Shown here one piece after another: positions 1 through 5,657 of a stretch of 5,959 bases of DNA. The notes beneath the pieces were generated by a model, which saw only the letters and a program-made list of their open reading frames with translations, was not told the origin of the DNA and did no database searches. The DNA comes from a virus. The position numbers and the translations under genes are program-made. Positions within the stretch are counted from its first letter, which is position 1; every line of letters begins with the position of its first letter. Where the stretch lies: IMG/VR virus record IMGVR_UViG_3300007153_000040. The stretch is one strand, 5' to 3'.

Positions 1-279
1 TATAATACAGGCCATGTCCCTTCATCGGAATTAATTGAAAAATATGAAGATGGTCTCATAGACTATGAAGGATTAGGTAGGGATCGATTTTATGATCCTG
101 TCAAAACTCCTAACGGTTCCCCGCCACTAGCAGGAAAAGACCCAACTACTGACAGCATGGGTATTTTCTATAAGGATGATTTCGGTTACTATAATTGGTA
201 TCGAAACATTGAAGGTGAATACCAGTGGCAAAGAGAAAGTCTAACGGAACGGTCGCAACGCGAAAAGAAAACAAACTGA
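1..279 (+). CDS. VP4: Replication initiation protein, 3'-terminal fragment. Duplicate of 5379..5657 and truncated by the window start.
   Basis: It is in frame from position 1, and 5379 is in frame with the 4680 start. The translation matches the Rep C-terminus (...YNTGHVPSSELIEKYEDGLIDYEG...SQREKKTN*), with the TGA stop at 277..279. Confidence 0.9.
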   Translation, partial: YNTGHVPSSELIEKYEDGLIDYEGLGRDRFYDPVKTPNGSPPLAGKDPTTDSMGIFYKDDFGYYNWYRNIEGEYQWQRESLTERSQREKKTN

Positions 280-581
280 CCACAAGGGCAAGTTCAAGGA
301 TGGATCAAACAACTTTAGTTGCCCCTGATCCTCTGGAACATATGAACGCTTATAGAACGTTCAAACCAAGAATAAGAGAGGCACGAATTCGTGAGAATTC
401 TGAGCCTACAGAAAGATTATCTAATCATAACGATAATCATCAAAAGCATATGGCGCTCAGAGCGGAAGCACATTCATTGCTTCCAAAAGACAGCGTTACA
501 CATAGGTCTCAACTAAAACTAGAGCATGACAATTCACCCCATAAGGTGCGCGATAGAGTTTGCAAAAAAAGACCGGAAAGC
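1..581. repeat. Terminal direct repeat, copy 1, matching 5379..5959. Wrap-around of a circular 5,378-nt genome.
   Basis: Position 1 (tataatacaggccatgtccc) aligns with 5379 and position 581 aligns with 5959, the last base of the window. Several internal stretches compared by eye are identical. The offset is constant at 5,378 nt. Confidence 0.95.
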
Positions 582-641
582 AATGTCAAGGGCAGCGGAG
601 GAGGAAAAAAAGCACGAGTGTTCATACCGTGGTGCAGATAG
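225..641 (+). CDS. Hypothetical hydrophilic, basic protein of 138 aa from GTG 225, or 113 aa from ATG 300. Possibly an internal-scaffolding or DNA-associated protein.
   Basis: The ORF is open to TAG 639..641. GTG 225 is preceded by AGGTGA (213..218) with a 6-nt spacer. The alternative ATG 300 is preceded by AAGGG (284..288). The long form overlaps the Rep 3' end (225..279) in another frame. The sequence is rich in K/R/E/N/S/H with no hydrophobic core, and the C-terminus is basic-aromatic (KKRPESNVKGSGGGKKARVFIPWCR). I recognise no family motif. Confidence 0.6.
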   Translation: MAKRKSNGTVATRKENKLTTRASSRMDQTTLVAPDPLEHMNAYRTFKPRIREARIRENSEPTERLSNHNDNHQKHMALRAEAHSLLPKDSVTHRSQLKLEHDNSPHKVRDRVCKKRPESNVKGSGGGKKARVFIPWCR

Positions 642-936: not shown

Positions 937-1850
937 GTTTTTGGGGCGCAATCGGTTCTATAGGTTCATCCGTTCTAGGTGGACTCTTTGGACGAAAAAA
1001 AAAGGCTGAAAGCTCTACAACTACAAGCTACGTCGATTATGACAGGCTTGTTAGAGATTCAGAAGCAGCAGGGTTTAACCCGCTGACTGCGCTTAGAAAC
1101 GGTGGCTCCGCTGGGTTCTCCGTTTCTACAACTACCTCTCCGAGTACACCGCTATCATCGCCCACCTTGGGCGGTACTGTAGCAAGTGGGATCAATGCTT
1201 TCTTAGAAAACTTTGATCCCCATAAAGATGATGCGAGGGACATAGGATATGGCGTTATCAGGGCGCAATTGCAAAATTTGCAAAATGATCCCCGAAGGAA
1301 AATTGGCTTTGGCGATGTTCCTTCTACTACCGGCCGTAGGGTTGTTTCTTCTTCTCCTGTGCTATCGTCTAGAGATAAAGAAGTAAAATTTAAGGGTTCC
1401 GTTCCCGAAGGTGTCCAGAGAATGGAATTACCGGAAACGGATAACTTAGTAACTACTATCCCAGGCTCTGCCGTTCCTAGCCTTAATCCGTTATCTTCCC
1501 ACCCTCCTGAACTGGAGCGACCAAAGCGACTAAATCCATATCCTTCATATTTAGGATTGGAAATTAACCCGTGGACTTCCTCTGCTGAGGCTTGGGAAGA
1601 TTGGTACGGTGATAACGCTGTCGTTTCACTCGGTGCCACACTCCTTAACGGTTCTCATGATGTTGCGTGGAACAGTTATAGAATGGGCAGATGGGGTTAT
1701 AGAAAAGGCAAAGAACTTTATAAAAATCCGCCATTATCTGCCAAGCGTTTCCGTAAGGAAGATTATCACAATCAAGGCACAAATATTTATGGCTTGCCAT
1801 CAGGTACAATACCGAGTGGCGGCATAGTCCCGAGGCCGAAATTAAAATGA
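933..1850 (+). CDS. VP2: DNA pilot / minor capsid protein (VP2 / protein H-like), 305 aa with a GTG start.
   Basis: GAGG (921..924) lies 8 nt upstream of GTG 933, and there is no in-frame ATG until residue 164. The Gly-rich hydrophobic N-terminus (MSFWGAIGSIGSSVLGGLFGRKKK) followed by AAGFNPLTAL resembles microvirus VP2 N-termini as I recall them. The rest is S/T/P-rich and low complexity. The gene sits immediately upstream of the capsid gene. Confidence 0.82.
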   Translation: MSFWGAIGSIGSSVLGGLFGRKKKAESSTTTSYVDYDRLVRDSEAAGFNPLTALRNGGSAGFSVSTTTSPSTPLSSPTLGGTVASGINAFLENFDPHKDDARDIGYGVIRAQLQNLQNDPRRKIGFGDVPSTTGRRVVSSSPVLSSRDKEVKFKGSVPEGVQRMELPETDNLVTTIPGSAVPSLNPLSSHPPELERPKRLNPYPSYLGLEINPWTSSAEAWEDWYGDNAVVSLGATLLNGSHDVAWNSYRMGRWGYRKGKELYKNPPLSAKRFRKEDYHNQGTNIYGLPSGTIPSGGIVPRPKLK

Positions 1851-1927
1851 AGTGTAAAAGTTGCGCTAAACGAAGAAAAGCAATTAAGCAAACTTTCAAA
1901 AAAATCTTCAAAAGAAAGAAAAAGTAA
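1847..1927 (+). CDS. 26-aa highly basic mini-protein, MKCKSCAKRRKAIKQTFKKIFKRKKK. Candidate J/VP8-like DNA-binding and packaging protein.
   Basis: I translated this by hand because it is below the ORF-track size cut-off. ATG 1847 overlaps the VP2 stop (ATGA), and TAA 1925..1927 overlaps the VP1 start (TAATG). GAGG (1832..1835) lies 11 nt upstream. 14 of 26 residues are K/R and there is a CxxC pair. The position directly before the major capsid gene mirrors gene J in phiX174. Confidence 0.6.
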   Translation: MKCKSCAKRRKAIKQTFKKIFKRKKK

Positions 1928-3567
1928 TGTCACTTTCTAACACCCGTTTAAATACAAATCCTATTTATACTCCGCAGACAATTCGTCGTCAGACAGCGCG
2001 AGGCATAACTAGCGTCGATGCTGGCAAGATGGTTCCTATCGCTGCCTATCCTCTGCTACGCGAAGAAAGTATTGTTTCTGGCCGCGTGCGTTTCAATTTT
2101 GAAATGATGGAAACGGCAGAAATGCTAATGAACGCTGTTAACGTTCGAGTTATGGCGTATTTAGTGCCTACTCTGGCACTTGAGCGTTTCGAAGGCTCTA
2201 TGGATCAGCTGAACCGCTCTTACTCTGGTGAGAGCTTTAAGGATTTGCCAGTCGTCCCATATATTGAAACTCAACTTATGGGCGCACACGGCTCCAATGC
2301 CGTTTATAAATCTATAGGTTTACATGCTCGGCCAAATCAGCGCGTCAATACCATGTATTTGGAAGCCTACAACACTATTTGGAACTTCCGAGCTACAAAC
2401 CGCTCTAAGGATTTGAAAAAGCGTGACAGATTGCAAGCCGATCTCGCACCAGCTTTCTGGCAGCATGAACGATTTAAGCATATCGTTCCTGATTTCGATC
2501 AGGCTGTTATCGATGGTGAAGTGCCGTTAAATGTAACAAACGCTAAGCTGCCAGTGCGCGGCATTGGTTTCAATGCTACAAACAACGGTTGGCGCACAAC
2601 TCAAGACGCTCCGGCTCTCCGTGAGAGCACAGGTAAACTTGGCGTCTCTCCGCATCCTTACCGTTATGACAATCCAACAATTTCAGGACAAAATATCGGT
2701 GGTCAATTCTTCCCCGATATTTTTGCTGAAATGCAAGATAACGGTATTACTGTATCTCTGTCCAACATCGAGCTGGCACGTAAGACACAAGCATTTGCGC
2801 GTCTGCGTGAACAATATAATGGCCACGATGATGAATACATTATCAACCTTCTCATGGATGGTATCACCGTTCCTGAAAAGGCTTTCACACAACCAATGTT
2901 AATTGGTGAACGGAATACAGTATTCGGCATGGCTAAGCGTTATGCAACTGACGGTGCAAATCTGACCGACAGCGTAGTAAACGGTGCGACCTTCGTCGAT
3001 ATGTCTCTACAGTTGCCCCGAATTCCTACAGGTGGCGTTATTATGATTTTGGTGGAAATTACACCAGATCAGATTTTCGAGCGTCAGAAAGACCCGTTCT
3101 TTCATGCGCAAACTGTTGAGGATTTCCCATCGTATCTCCGCGATTACCTCGATCCTGAAAAAGTGTCGGTAGTCCCGAATGATTACATTGACGTCGATCA
3201 CAACAAGCCGACAAGCACCTTCGGTTATGCACCTCTAAACTATGAGTGGCAGCGAGATGCACCATTAGTTGGCGGTAAATTTTACCGTCCTAAAGTGGAT
3301 GCAGGATTTAACGAAGACAGACAAAGAATTTGGGCTGTTGAAACTGCCAATCCTACTTTGTCGGAGAATTTTTATATTTGCTCCGACATTCACAAAAAAC
3401 CTTTCGTTGTTACGAATAAAGACCCGTTTGAAGTTACAAGCACAGGCGAATTGTTAATTCGCGGTTCAACAGTCTTCGGTCAGCAGCTTCACGAAGCTAC
3501 CAACGATTACGATAAAGTCTTGGAAAAAGCGCCAATGGAACGCATCAAGAAAGAGGAAAAGAAATGA
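1927..3567 (+). CDS. VP1: Major capsid protein (Microviridae F / VP1 family), 546 aa.
   Basis: This is the longest ORF. Its size and layout are typical of microvirus capsid proteins. The N-terminal region (...SVDAGKMVPIAAYPLLREESIVSGRVRFNFEM...), the segment YLEAYNTIWNFRA and the mid-protein LSNIELARKTQAFARLREQY parallel phiX174 F segments (YLNIYNNYF; IDIMGLQAAYANLH...) as I recall them. It is flanked by pilot and Rep genes in a roughly 5.4-kb circle. Confidence 0.93.
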   Translation: MSLSNTRLNTNPIYTPQTIRRQTARGITSVDAGKMVPIAAYPLLREESIVSGRVRFNFEMMETAEMLMNAVNVRVMAYLVPTLALERFEGSMDQLNRSYSGESFKDLPVVPYIETQLMGAHGSNAVYKSIGLHARPNQRVNTMYLEAYNTIWNFRATNRSKDLKKRDRLQADLAPAFWQHERFKHIVPDFDQAVIDGEVPLNVTNAKLPVRGIGFNATNNGWRTTQDAPALRESTGKLGVSPHPYRYDNPTISGQNIGGQFFPDIFAEMQDNGITVSLSNIELARKTQAFARLREQYNGHDDEYIINLLMDGITVPEKAFTQPMLIGERNTVFGMAKRYATDGANLTDSVVNGATFVDMSLQLPRIPTGGVIMILVEITPDQIFERQKDPFFHAQTVEDFPSYLRDYLDPEKVSVVPNDYIDVDHNKPTSTFGYAPLNYEWQRDAPLVGGKFYRPKVDAGFNEDRQRIWAVETANPTLSENFYICSDIHKKPFVVTNKDPFEVTSTGELLIRGSTVFGQQLHEATNDYDKVLEKAPMERIKKEEKK

Positions 3568-4094
3568 TTAAGATTGGTGAGATTGACCGTTGGCTGCGTT
3601 TGAAGCCGTCTAGCAGCCTGATGCTTTCAGGCTATGACGCTCGAACAATACGTCTGGACGTTAACTGTCGAGATAAAGCTCGTCTTTATCTTACAGACCA
3701 AATAACAGGCGAGGAACAGTTTCTTGCTACCGTAACAGGCCTCGACCGTGTTGAGTTCGTTAAAGCAGGCAATGTCTGCATCACAACACCTGATGAAGAT
3801 GTGTTTGTTTTTACAAGCGAAGTTGAAGAAACACACCTTCACTTTGACCATCAGGACGTTTATACCCGCATCGCTGAGCGTGCGGCACGAAACACCGATC
3901 TTGAAATTATTCTAGCAAGACAGGCTGAAAATTTTGAAAGACGATTTAACCAAATGGCAGTCGATTTTGAAAATAGACTTGCCTACCAAACAGCCGCACA
4001 AGCTCACTATGAGCCAGAGGGCGTTGCTCCAGCTCCACAACCGGAATCCAAACCGAACGGTGATGAAGGGGCACCCGCTGGAGATAATGAATAG
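3564..4094 (+). CDS. Hypothetical 176-aa protein, function unknown. Candidate scaffolding or spike-type structural protein.
   Basis: ATG 3564 overlaps the VP1 stop (ATGA), with GAGG (3553..3556) 7 nt upstream. The N-terminal half shows alternating, beta-strand-like patterns (TIRLDVNC, RLYLTD, FLATVTG, VEFVKAGNVCITT, VFVFTSEV). The C-terminal half looks helical (RIAERAARNTDLEIILARQAENFERRFNQMAVDFENRLAYQ) and ends in an acidic Pro-rich tail. I recognise no family motif. Confidence 0.72.
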   Translation: MIKIGEIDRWLRLKPSSSLMLSGYDARTIRLDVNCRDKARLYLTDQITGEEQFLATVTGLDRVEFVKAGNVCITTPDEDVFVFTSEVEETHLHFDHQDVYTRIAERAARNTDLEIILARQAENFERRFNQMAVDFENRLAYQTAAQAHYEPEGVAPAPQPESKPNGDEGAPAGDNE

Positions 4095-4608
4095 GTTAAA
4101 CCCTCCGCCAACTGAGGAAATTGAGGTCGTGGATTATTCCACGGCCTTCCGGTCTATGATCGATGAGAATTTCCTCAAATCTATAAAATATAGCGAACAG
4201 CAAATGCGGGCTGATAGAACAGCCGCGCACCCTGATATTCTCGAATTTGAGAAAAAGTTTGTAACTAAATGTTACAAACTTAAAATACCAGTATTTGCAC
4301 ATTGCGTTATGCGAGATAAGCACACGCAAAATGAGCTGTTCGTAAAAGGCCATAGTAAGGCCGTATACGGCAAATCCGCACATAATTACGGATTTGCCGT
4401 TGATATAATACATTCAACCAAGGCTTGGAATTTAGACCGTCTTGCATGGTCTGAATTGGGACATATTGGCAAGGAACTTGCCATACAAGCCGGAATAAAA
4501 ATTGAATGGGGCGGGGATTGGAAGTTTTACGACCCCGCCCACTGGGAAATTAAAAACTGGAAACAGTTTATAGGACCCCAACCCATGCCCCAACTTAATC
4601 TCGATTAG
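4087..4608 (+). CDS. Zinc D-Ala-D-Ala carboxypeptidase-type peptidase, MEROPS family M15 (VanY / Peptidase_M15_4-like). Probable endolysin, 173 aa.
   Basis: It carries the metal-binding signature SAHNYGFAVD (H at 4381..4383, D at 4402..4404) and the downstream WGGDW...DPAHWE (H at 4540..4542), giving the H-x6-D...H triad of M15 / LAS-fold peptidases. The upstream R-x4-QNELF-x-KG is also typical. I chose ATG 4087 as the start because GGAG lies at 4080..4083 and it makes an 8-nt overlap (ATGAATAG) with the upstream stop. The track's 3934 start is a TTG codon with no RBS. There is no N-terminal signal peptide or TM segment. Confidence 0.88.
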   Translation: MNRLNPPPTEEIEVVDYSTAFRSMIDENFLKSIKYSEQQMRADRTAAHPDILEFEKKFVTKCYKLKIPVFAHCVMRDKHTQNELFVKGHSKAVYGKSAHNYGFAVDIIHSTKAWNLDRLAWSELGHIGKELAIQAGIKIEWGGDWKFYDPAHWEIKNWKQFIGPQPMPQLNLD

Positions 4609-4615: not shown

Positions 4616-4641
4616 GCATACACATCCTTGAGTGTGTATGC
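4616..4641. repeat. 9-bp perfect hairpin in the peptidase-Rep intergenic region. Possible weak terminator or structural element.
   Basis: gcatacaca (4616..4624) is the exact reverse complement of tgtgtatgc (4633..4641). The loop is tccttgag and the hairpin is followed by aTTTa. It occludes the upstream in-frame GTG 4632 and ATG 4638 codons. Confidence 0.75.
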
Positions 4642-4679
4642 ATTTAGTGACAGGGATTTTCTGGAGAAGGGAACGATTT

Positions 4680-5657
4680 ATGTGTTTAGCAAGTGGACAA
4701 CTACCGGATGGAACAGAAATACCCTGTCGCGAATGCTGGCAATGCAGAAACGACAAGATCAACGATTGGGTAGGTAGATGTATTGCCGAAAATAAAACCT
4801 CCAAAGCTGCCCATTTCATTACTTTGACTTATGGCAAAGATGATGAAGAGAACTCTGAGCATATAAGATCACAACTACTGACTTATTCTGATGTTCAAAA
4901 ATATTTCAAACTTTTACGATCCAAAGGATATATATTTAGATACTTGGTCGCTGGCGAATATGGATCGTTAAAAGGCCGCTCACATTGGCATTTGATAATG
5001 TACTGGAAAAATGTAGTTCCACCCCACGAACTTACAGACCAGTTTAGAGTTAGGCGGTTCACTGATAGAAATTGGCCACACGGCCACCAAGTATGGAAGA
5101 AAGTTACACCTGAAACCGTTAGATATGTATGCAAATACATTAATAAGGATATTGGAAAAGATGAAAGACAAGCTCACTTTTCCATGAGTAAAAAACCACC
5201 GTTAGGATTTGATTACTTCAACGATCTGGCTGAGAAATACGCAATGCAAGGTTTGGCACCGCAAAACCTGATATATTCTTTCAACGAATACAAGAAGCAT
5301 GGCAAAAAGGTCGAATTTAGAATGACCGGAACTACAGCACAGAATTTTATTAAAAAATTTATTGAAGTTTGGCCGAACTATAATACAGGCCATGTCCCTT
5401 CATCGGAATTAATTGAAAAATATGAAGATGGTCTCATAGACTATGAAGGATTAGGTAGGGATCGATTTTATGATCCTGTCAAAACTCCTAACGGTTCCCC
5501 GCCACTAGCAGGAAAAGACCCAACTACTGACAGCATGGGTATTTTCTATAAGGATGATTTCGGTTACTATAATTGGTATCGAAACATTGAAGGTGAATAC
5601 CAGTGGCAAAGAGAAAGTCTAACGGAACGGTCGCAACGCGAAAAGAAAACAAACTGA
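4680..5657 (+). CDS. VP4: Rolling-circle replication initiation protein (HUH endonuclease; Microviridae VP4 / protein A family), 325 aa.
   Basis: Motif I is HFITLTY (FITLTY at 4815..4832). The HUH motif II is SHWHLIMYW (HWH at 4983..4991). The two-tyrosine motif III is YVCKYINK (5124..5147), compared with phiX174 A protein YVAKYVNK. The N-terminal PCRECWQCR cysteine cluster (4725..4745) is typical of microvirus Rep. I chose ATG 4680 because GGAGAAGGG lies at 4663..4671. The track's 4632 start is a GTG inside a hairpin with no RBS. Confidence 0.93.
   Translation: MCLASGQLPDGTEIPCRECWQCRNDKINDWVGRCIAENKTSKAAHFITLTYGKDDEENSEHIRSQLLTYSDVQKYFKLLRSKGYIFRYLVAGEYGSLKGRSHWHLIMYWKNVVPPHELTDQFRVRRFTDRNWPHGHQVWKKVTPETVRYVCKYINKDIGKDERQAHFSMSKKPPLGFDYFNDLAEKYAMQGLAPQNLIYSFNEYKKHGKKVEFRMTGTTAQNFIKKFIEVWPNYNTGHVPSSELIEKYEDGLIDYEGLGRDRFYDPVKTPNGSPPLAGKDPTTDSMGIFYKDDFGYYNWYRNIEGEYQWQRESLTERSQREKKTN

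Follow-up and report, generated by a model that had tools for sequence, protein, structure and literature searches.

A conserved short gene for a Lys/Arg-rich peptide with a cysteine pair at the pilot-capsid junction of Occultatumvirinae microviruses

The stretch of DNA analyzed here (the window, 5,959 nt in all; IMG/VR record IMGVR_UViG_3300007153_000040) is an apparently near-complete microvirus genome, in which all recognizable genes lie on the + strand. The VP2/H-like DNA pilot gene occupies positions 933-1850 (305 codons as listed, GTG start, TGA stop at 1848-1850) and the VP1/F major capsid protein gene occupies positions 1927-3567 (546 codons, ATG at 1927-1929). An earlier interpretation made from the letters alone (the sequence-only reading) had placed in the gap between them a hidden 26-codon frame for a possible J-like DNA-packaging protein, and the sequence together with the open reading frame (ORF) coordinates bears out the frame itself. 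This mini-gene, also on the + strand, runs from an ATG at 1847-1849 to a TAA at 1925-1927, i.e., 26 codons plus stop, and its product, here called the mini-protein, is MKCKSCAKRRKAIKQTFKKIFKRKKK; the ATG at 1847 is the sole start codon within the open stretch. At the 5' end, the VP2 stop codon (1848-1850) shares letters with the mini-gene start codon in an ATGA overlap (1847-1850), and at the 3' end the mini-gene stop meets the VP1 start codon in the sequence TAATG (1925-1929), a putative termination-reinitiation coupling site. A GAGG resembling a Shine-Dalgarno (SD) site is located at 1832-1835, with 11 nt between it and the mini-gene ATG. The mini-protein has 11 Lys and 3 Arg among its 26 residues, no acidic residues, a net charge of +14 and an isoelectric point (pI) of ~11.3. 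It carries a CxxC pair, Cys-Lys-Ser-Cys, at 1853-1864 (Cys3 at 1853-1855 and Cys6 at 1862-1864), and its C-terminus is KRKKK. Both overlaps, the spacing of the GAGG, the content of 14 Lys/Arg in 26 residues and the cysteine pair are all as the sequence-only reading had described them.

On sequence grounds, the window virus is a member of 'Occultatumvirinae', a proposed microvirus subfamily corresponding to Kirchberger's Family 7 (PMC9753089, PMC11499846). These are globally distributed single-stranded DNA (ssDNA) phages of Alphaproteobacteria, including rhizobia and marine Roseobacter, and 433 genomes have been compiled (PMC11499846). The VP1 frame matches phrog_514 (E = 3.5e-11), and tblastn of the window capsid protein found 72 GenBank microvirus capsid genes with identity of up to 65%, from tortoise and flying-fox fecal microviruses, Rhizobium microviruses and Roseobacter CRPss phages. 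A capsid-profile scan of IMG/VR gave a further 80 loci at 43-79% capsid identity, of which 78 extend 90 nt or more upstream of VP1 and were evaluable. The sequence-only reading had proposed looking in related genomes for a conserved short basic ORF at the same junction, and a short Lys/Arg-rich ORF with a CxxC pair is found there in 100 of 102 evaluable relatives, across 43-79% VP1 identity: in 76/78 IMG/VR loci, 9/9 GenBank genomes and 15/15 prophages. Four of the GenBank genomes have the CxxC basic ORF in an unannotated gap between the pilot and capsid genes, and five further genomes have it likewise. In IMG/VR, a first pass found the ORF intact in 75/78 loci, typically with its end on the VP1 start or a few nt away, and a third apparent exception, L011, proved to hold an intact 45-codon ORF with a tail overlapping VP1; the remaining two exceptions are considered below. 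Examples of the encoded products are MCAKCKKIRKIITKIIARRKRK, ..PCKCKNCRKQYKLKRKVKK and MKCRRCKKRAVKIRKIFRKIKGKK from IMG/VR loci, and the mini-protein predicted for Roseobacter phage CRPss-153, MACAKCKKIRNLIKKLRRKK. The 15 prophage copies come from 11 named alphaproteobacterial taxa (Hyphomicrobiales and Rhodobacterales, with hosts including Mesorhizobium, Agrobacterium, Rhizobium, Aminobacter, Roseovarius and Maritimibacter). The carriers of the mini-gene thus span low- and high-GC lineages, and free phages as well as prophages.

The junction is the place where such frames are concentrated. A strict motif, defined as CxxC followed by 14-36 residues to the stop with at least 38% Lys/Arg, occurs at the junction in 70/78 loci, compared to 3 matches in the remaining ~347 kb read in six frames. 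That the fit of the frame was hard to credit to chance, as the sequence-only reading had argued, is borne out by this enrichment. The three off-junction matches (L062 at nt 768, L074 at nt 611 and L086 at nt 638) represent one homologous stretch inside another gene, CKICRT[ML]DRR[TP]RRRNI followed by a stop; the three loci are related, marine, and carry it ~1.7-1.8 kb ahead of VP1.

Constraint on the codon frame, which the sequence-only reading had named as a check, is specific to the mini-gene frame. The Nei-Gojobori ratio of non-synonymous to synonymous differences per site (pN/pS), taken in four independent length groups, was 0.17, 0.38, 0.35 and 0.57 in the mini-gene frame, relative to 0.8-1.5 in frame +1 and 0.26-1.0 in frame +2, all of these estimates being short, non-independent pairwise comparisons. 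The lowest values are those of the mini-gene frame, which is under purifying selection; they exceed the 0.03-0.14 obtained for the N-terminal region of VP1 in these loci but fall short of neutrality. The VP2 C-terminal region was dropped as a benchmark: its pN/pS was ~1 with pS ~0.6, and the ungapped slices were probably misaligned. In alignments of 23-37 diverse members, the only invariant columns are the two cysteines, C3 and C6. Family peptides are ~20-45 residues long and share an N-proximal Cys-x-x-Cys with a tail behind it that is almost purely Lys/Arg-rich; a third cysteine, C-K-C-K-N-C, is present in one marine lineage. Among 67 unique family peptides only 6 of 1912 residues are acidic, the median net charge is +0.50 per residue, 72% of the last four residues are Lys or Arg, and an aromatic residue occurs there in 3/67. 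The pattern of a zinc ribbon or zinc knuckle, with four Cys/His ligands per chain, was not seen, since no Cys or His is conserved beyond the two cysteines. A conserved RNA or DNA element as the cause of the conservation was rejected: an Rfam search at the mini-gene locus matched no family, and the RNA secondary structure of the region is not unusual (fold z-score -0.69).

In the relatives, the mini-gene is embedded between VP2 and VP1 in much the same way as in the window. The offset of the mini-gene start from the VP2 stop is -4 in 22 loci, -1 in 18 and -11 in 14, and that of the mini-gene stop from the VP1 start is -4 in 36 loci, +2 in 17, +1 in 7 and -1 in 7, so that in 71/75 relatives the mini-gene stop lies between a 14 nt overlap with the VP1 start and 2 nt short of it. 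In four IMG/VR loci (L050, L053, L056 and L084) and two prophages (L103 and L107) the mini-gene, though intact, ends ~120-150 nt short of VP1, with a spacer in between. A programmed frameshift that would fuse the peptide to VP2 was considered and rejected, as the overlap register varies (-1, -4, -8, -11 and +2) with no common slippery geometry. The 20-nt leader of VP1, which is the 3' end of the mini-gene, pairs with the anti-SD sequence at -4 kcal/mol or lower in 94% of distinct leaders, compared to 26% of random windows; the Lys/Arg codons of the mini-gene therefore double as the ribosome-binding site of VP1. In the window itself, with 20 nt taken in each case, the anti-SD duplex is -5.9 kcal/mol upstream of the mini-gene and -0.9 kcal/mol upstream of VP1 (1907-1926). 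Because VP1 of the window has no SD site of its own while the mini-gene has the GAGG, capsid translation in this virus probably depends on termination-reinitiation at TAATG after the mini-gene, which would in turn require efficient translation of the mini-gene.

The junction enrichment, the frame-specific pN/pS, the invariant cysteines, the composition and the lack of an RNA explanation together indicate that the frame is translated and that the peptide sequence is under selection. We regard it as almost certain that 1847-1927 is a real protein-coding gene.

To place the mini-protein among known microvirus proteins, we compared it to J of phiX174, the 'DNA condensation' core protein of the Bullavirinae, and to VP8 of the Gokushovirinae. 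Small proteins of this J/VP8 type occupy the virion interior in about 60 copies, where they bind the ssDNA and displace the internal scaffold. Like J, the mini-protein is tiny, Lys/Arg-rich and without acidic residues, and its gene stands directly upstream of the capsid gene with an ATG overlapping the preceding stop (J is at 848-964, D ends at 848 and F starts at 1001). At 60 copies per capsid the charge is also similar, with 60 x +14 amounting to ~14% of the 5959 phosphates of the window and 60 x +12 to ~13% of 5386 for phiX174; the charge density of the mini-protein exceeds that of J. Like VP8 (39 aa in EC6098 and 38 aa in SpV4), an interior capsid protein with a DNA-binding role (PMC11281519), it is a small Arg/Lys-rich peptide, and its gene comes right after the pilot gene, as does vp8 of EC6098 (vp2 at 3573-4352, vp8 at 4355-4474, 2 nt downstream). 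The mini-gene holds the J-type and the vp8-type positions simultaneously. Its place ahead of the capsid gene sets it apart from vp8, which comes after vp1-vp2. The J-like DNA-packaging function suggested by the sequence-only reading is plausible, with size, charge and gene position in agreement; a family relationship is not supported, given the lack of profile similarity and of a C-terminal anchor. A profile comparison to both families, for which the sequence-only reading had named HHpred, was made with hhalign and gave probabilities of 0.2% against phiX174 J (38 aa, Pfam Microvir_J) and 0.07% against EC6098 VP8, in a setting where short biased peptides carry little signal. The window peptide had no match in Pfam at E ≤ 0.1, and the family profile had none among Protein Data Bank (PDB) chains at E ≤ 10. 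In J and VP8, the C-terminal hydrophobic anchor buried in the capsid is the only structurally conserved part, and the basic DNA-binding part is N-terminal (PMC11281519). J is rich in Gly and Pro, Cys-free and ends LWYVGGQQF, and VP8 is likewise Cys-free, with the C-terminal anchor ..MRGGIRL; in contrast, the mini-protein has an invariant N-proximal CxxC and a basic C-terminus. It is a functional analogue of J and VP8 at best, and not a member of their family. A similar case is the 'tentative DNA-binding protein' OG6 of Roodoodoovirus (PMC9865509), also a small basic ORF from uncultured microviruses recognized by conservation and pN/pS; unlike the mini-protein, OG6 comes from a different clade and is J-like, with a basic N-terminus and a hydrophobic/aromatic C-terminus, and no CxxC is reported for it (PMC9865509).

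The window also encodes a second basic protein, which has to be considered in any assignment of function. The 138-codon ORF at 225-641 (+ strand) has a BLASTP match to an ORF of Tortoise microvirus 47 (5e-9), and carries a C-terminal two-cysteine motif, CKKRPESNVKGSGGGKKARVFIPWC (nt 561-635), the protein ending ..CKKRPESNVKGSGGGKKARVFIPWCR. The counterpart in Ebor, a phage of the sister subfamily Tainavirinae, is Gp10, the C-terminus of which is ..HCKMRPMDHSSKGGGSRPFVPWCKKV. This basic protein, 145 aa in length, has its coding region over the 3' end of the Rep gene and has been proposed as a charge-mitigating analogue of VP8/J (PMC11980548). In liquid chromatography-tandem mass spectrometry (LC-MS/MS) of Ebor virions, only the pilot protein, the capsid protein and Gp10 were present in significant amounts, and the absence of a short VP8/J was left unexplained by the authors (PMC11980548). 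The motif, CK.RP..[FYW][IVLM]PWC (in practice [FY][IV]PWC), is shared by the window and 47 loci of the two subfamilies, Ebor Gp10 and ICBM5 among them. It consists of C-K-x-R-P, a G-rich stretch and [FY]-[IV]-P-W-C, with exactly two conserved cysteines. Examples lie at 5719-6156 in L088 (Ebor Gp10), at 5244-5693 in L087 (ICBM5, wrapped), at 3877-4275 in L002 and at 1008-1244 in L004, and in marine lineages the Gp10-like protein is only ~78 aa. BLASTP of the 138-aa ORF of the window against the 149-aa ORF of ICBM5 found no similarity, the link being visible through the C-terminal motif only. This shared motif identifies 225-641 as a Gp10 homolog in the window. The mini-protein resembles Ebor Gp10 in being basic (Gp10 has a pI of ~11) and in having exactly two conserved cysteines. 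It differs in that Gp10 is 5-6 times longer, with +0.12 to +0.19 charge per residue compared to +0.54 for the mini-protein, has a gene that adjoins or overlaps Rep, and has the hydrophobic F[IV]PWC at its C-terminus; none of the features of the Gp10 type (the C-terminal motif, a length of ~80-150 aa, a position at the Rep 3' end) is found in the mini-protein. Conversely, the mini-gene is absent from the Tainavirinae Ebor and ICBM5, in which VP2 and VP1 are separated by a gap of 28 nt or overlap by 7 nt. The mini-gene is thus specific to the Occultatumvirinae, added in a clade already equipped with a basic internal protein.

The reading that we favor, with a probability of about 0.5, is that the mini-protein is a translationally coupled polycation that binds the ssDNA genome and is packaged with it, alongside the Gp10-like protein. 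Ribosomes would translate VP2, the mini-gene and VP1 as a coupled cassette, yielding the peptide along with the capsid protein; the polycationic peptide would then coat the ssDNA, enter the capsid with it and neutralize phosphate charge, working alongside the basic protein encoded at 225-641. DNA binding is suggested by the composition, i.e., the near-exclusion of acidic residues and a charge density higher than in J. The location of the gene in the structural module, in J-like and vp8-like positions, suggests a structural or packaging role, and its coupling to VP1 suggests co-production with the capsid protein.

Several observations weigh against this packaging role. The genome already has a Gp10-type basic protein, and in Ebor this is the only highly basic virion component by LC-MS/MS. 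The layout of Gp10, with a basic N-terminus and a hydrophobic ..FIPWC C-terminus, fits that of J/VP8 better than the mini-protein does, which is without the hydrophobic anchor of J/VP8 and has an effectively inverted layout of a Cys-pair head followed by a basic tail. The sister subfamily forms virions without a mini-gene, making its function dispensable in principle. The two exceptional loci also count on this side, as does the shortness of the pN/pS comparisons given above. In L077 (~nt 60-125) a TGA replaces the second Cys codon, giving MCAK*KKIRKIITKIFARRKRK*, and its close relative L075 (~nt 60-175) holds a frameshifted mini-gene remnant; VP1 is intact in both. The sequence-only reading had taken frames broken in relatives with intact neighboring genes as evidence against a gene, and L075 and L077, short loci in which VP1 only could be judged, are the only such cases; these disrupted copies, both marine, could reflect a real loss in one lineage or an assembly error. 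Finally, pure charge neutralization would not account for the invariant CxxC. The pair implies an additional specific interaction, plausibly a metal- or disulfide-mediated pairing or attachment. One speculative and rather unlikely form of this is a cross-linking 'staple', in which a shared Zn(Cys)4 site or disulfides would join peptide to peptide, or peptide to the two-cysteine tail of the Gp10-like protein (CK.RP...PWC), in a bridged polycation network that condenses and tethers the ssDNA in the capsid. Such a network, if real, would be a packaging mechanism unknown in Microviridae, loosely like the zinc knuckles of retroviral nucleocapsids or the zinc hook of Rad50, and the Occultatumvirinae would have split the job of J/VP8 between two proteins while the Tainavirinae use Gp10 alone.

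Alternative explanations differ in how much of the evidence they can accommodate. That the frame is a chance opening in an A-rich intergenic spacer is effectively refuted: it has only 26 codons, A-rich sequence is poor in stops in some frames, the peptide has no database entry and two relatives have broken copies, yet none of this accounts for conservation in 100/102 relatives at 43-79% capsid identity, the junction enrichment, the frame-specific constraint and the invariant cysteines. A more serious proposal is that the frame is translated but its peptide functionless, the mini-gene acting as an upstream coupling ORF or leader through which ribosomes pass from VP2 to VP1 and in which the ribosome-binding site of VP1 lies. 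The overlapping stop and start signals at both ends in nearly all relatives, the SD site of VP1 inside the mini-gene in 94% of them, the lack of an SD site at VP1 in the window, and the resemblance of Lys/Arg codons (AAA, AAG, AGA and AGG) to a purine-rich leader are all as expected for such a spacer. A spacer alone, however, would have no need of two invariant Cys codons at fixed spacing, of a pN/pS well below 1 in this frame and not in the others, or of the almost complete exclusion of acidic residues (6/1912). Moreover, the mini-gene is kept in the 4 IMG/VR and 2 prophage loci where the ~120-150 nt spacer uncouples VP1, and no spacer ORF is needed in the Tainavirinae, where VP2 and VP1 either overlap by 7 nt or lie 28 nt apart. 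We therefore consider this explanation very improbable.

The main rival to packaging accepts the gene and the peptide, and takes the mini-protein as a non-structural, unpackaged nucleic-acid-binding factor, such as a translation regulator, a regulator of the switch from replicative form (RF) to ssDNA, or a binder of host DNA or RNA, with the CxxC as half of a zinc knuckle that dimerizes on its target. It draws on the same evidence of conservation and selection, and specific binding that depends on a metal is the more typical setting for an invariant CxxC, compared to bulk charge neutralization; this proposal is also in keeping with the missing J/VP8-type capsid anchor and with a Gp10-type virion protein already being there to neutralize the DNA (PMC11980548). 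The location of the gene in the structural block, coupled to the most abundantly needed protein, nonetheless implies a capsid-like output, 20-26 residues at ~50% Lys/Arg leave little room for sequence-specific recognition, and nothing is conserved beyond the two cysteines; we judge a non-structural factor possible, if on the unlikely side. A role in lysis is improbable. Here the mini-protein would be a cationic membrane-active peptide of the disruptin type, exemplified by gp28 of phage phiKT, that breaches the outer membrane after an M15 endolysin has cut the wall. The genome does encode an M15 endolysin and a small hydrophobic ORF (745-936), with no recognizable spanin, the mini-protein is short and strongly cationic, and ~20/47 family members have some helical amphipathicity. 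This amphipathicity is weak, however, with z = 0.7 against shuffles for the window peptide and a family median of z = 1.3 (20/47 below 0.05), and the idea of an amphipathic helix was dropped as the hydrophobic moment of the window peptide is not significantly above that of shuffles. At ~50% Lys/Arg with few hydrophobic residues, the peptides are too polar for typical membrane-active peptides. The genomic context is also unfavorable to a lysis role: the gene is coupled to structural genes and is not beside the endolysin, L010 and L011 keep the mini-gene without a detectable M15 homolog between VP1 and Rep, and the Tainavirinae have a peptidoglycan hydrolase yet no mini-gene.

The gene has gone unannotated, as the sequence-only reading had anticipated: it is missing from all ten GenBank records inspected and is nearly absent from protein databases. 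None of 10 family peptides looked up by exact match occurred in a collection of 15 billion proteins. When 5.8 billion protein clusters were searched with a family profile, a single marginal homolog emerged, the unnamed 43-aa protein P0001; on the metagenome contigs where it is called, its gene is flanked by the capsid gene and a 302-aa pilot-like gene. Searches of Pfam and PHROGs with the 26-aa peptide and 22 family members gave nothing significant, and phrog_32883, of unknown function, weakly matched 5 family members (best E = 0.031). A literature search found no published description of the mini-gene for Occultatumvirinae, nor a virion proteome or structure from this subfamily. The papers on the clade (PMC9753089, PMC11499846, PMC9512667), which used MetaGeneAnnotator, GeneMarkS or Prodigal as gene callers, make no mention of a DNA-binding, J or VP8 protein, and the VP8 annotations of Kirchberger et al. 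came from jackhmmer searches started with known phages only. A gene present in ~98% of genomes was thus missed, being below the length limits of gene callers, and in many records the mini-gene straddles the point at which the circle was linearized; this point splits it in most of 24 Rhizobium phage records. In L001 (MN988475, record positions 4-75) and 20 similar Rhizobium phage records, the capsid coding sequence is annotated from nt 4. In MN988475, capsid homology starts at ~nt 76, a better-placed ATG is at nt 49, and the annotated N-terminal extension overlaps the mini-gene, which straddles the linearization point of the record, so that the capsid start in records of this type is probably mis-annotated.

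Gene inventories of the Occultatumvirinae serve both taxonomy and ecology, and the core set of VP1, VP2 and VP4 (plus the peptidase) gains a fourth or fifth universal gene. The mini-gene is a concrete candidate for the 'missing short J/VP8' noted in the sister clade (PMC11980548), and raises the question of how the work of condensing DNA in a T=1 capsid is divided between the mini-protein and the Gp10-like protein. Among DNA-associated peptides of microviruses, an invariant pair of cysteines is new. A caution applies to virion proteomics, in that tryptic digestion cannot see such peptides: trypsin would shred a mini-protein that is 54% Lys/Arg.

The other genes of the window, all on the + strand, complete the picture of the genome. 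The pilot gene (933-1850) occupies the same position as the VP2 genes of the GenBank relatives, and the N-terminus of its product weakly matches six 'pilot protein for DNA ejection' PHROGs (best E = 6e-4). The Ebor capsid (PDB 9FFG/9FFH) is the only solved relative, and the window VP1 matches it distantly (9FFG, 4e-9). An IMG/VR contig of 5369 nt (L006/L009; IMGVR_UViG_3300005311_000015), probably a metagenomic copy of the same virus, matches the window at 100% identity across the first 324 codons of VP1 and in the whole of the mini-gene. Downstream of the capsid gene, an M15 peptidase endolysin is found by Pfam and PHROGs searches at ~3934-4608, and the Rep protein is encoded at 4632-5657. 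The 63-codon hydrophobic ORF at 745-936, the 3' end of which overlaps the VP2 start, has positional counterparts annotated as hypothetical proteins in relatives (e.g., 4792-4995 in a Rhizobium phage) and as the 'putative membrane protein' Gp1 in Ebor, and could be a holin-like partner of the endolysin. A 176-codon ORF at 3564-4094, with no family match, has an ATGA-type overlap with VP1 at 3564-3567, and runs at its 3' end into the listed start region of the M15 peptidase ORF. Its product has an acidic, Pro/Glu-rich C-terminus, and its position, which is that of Gp5 in Ebor, suggests a scaffolding-type protein.

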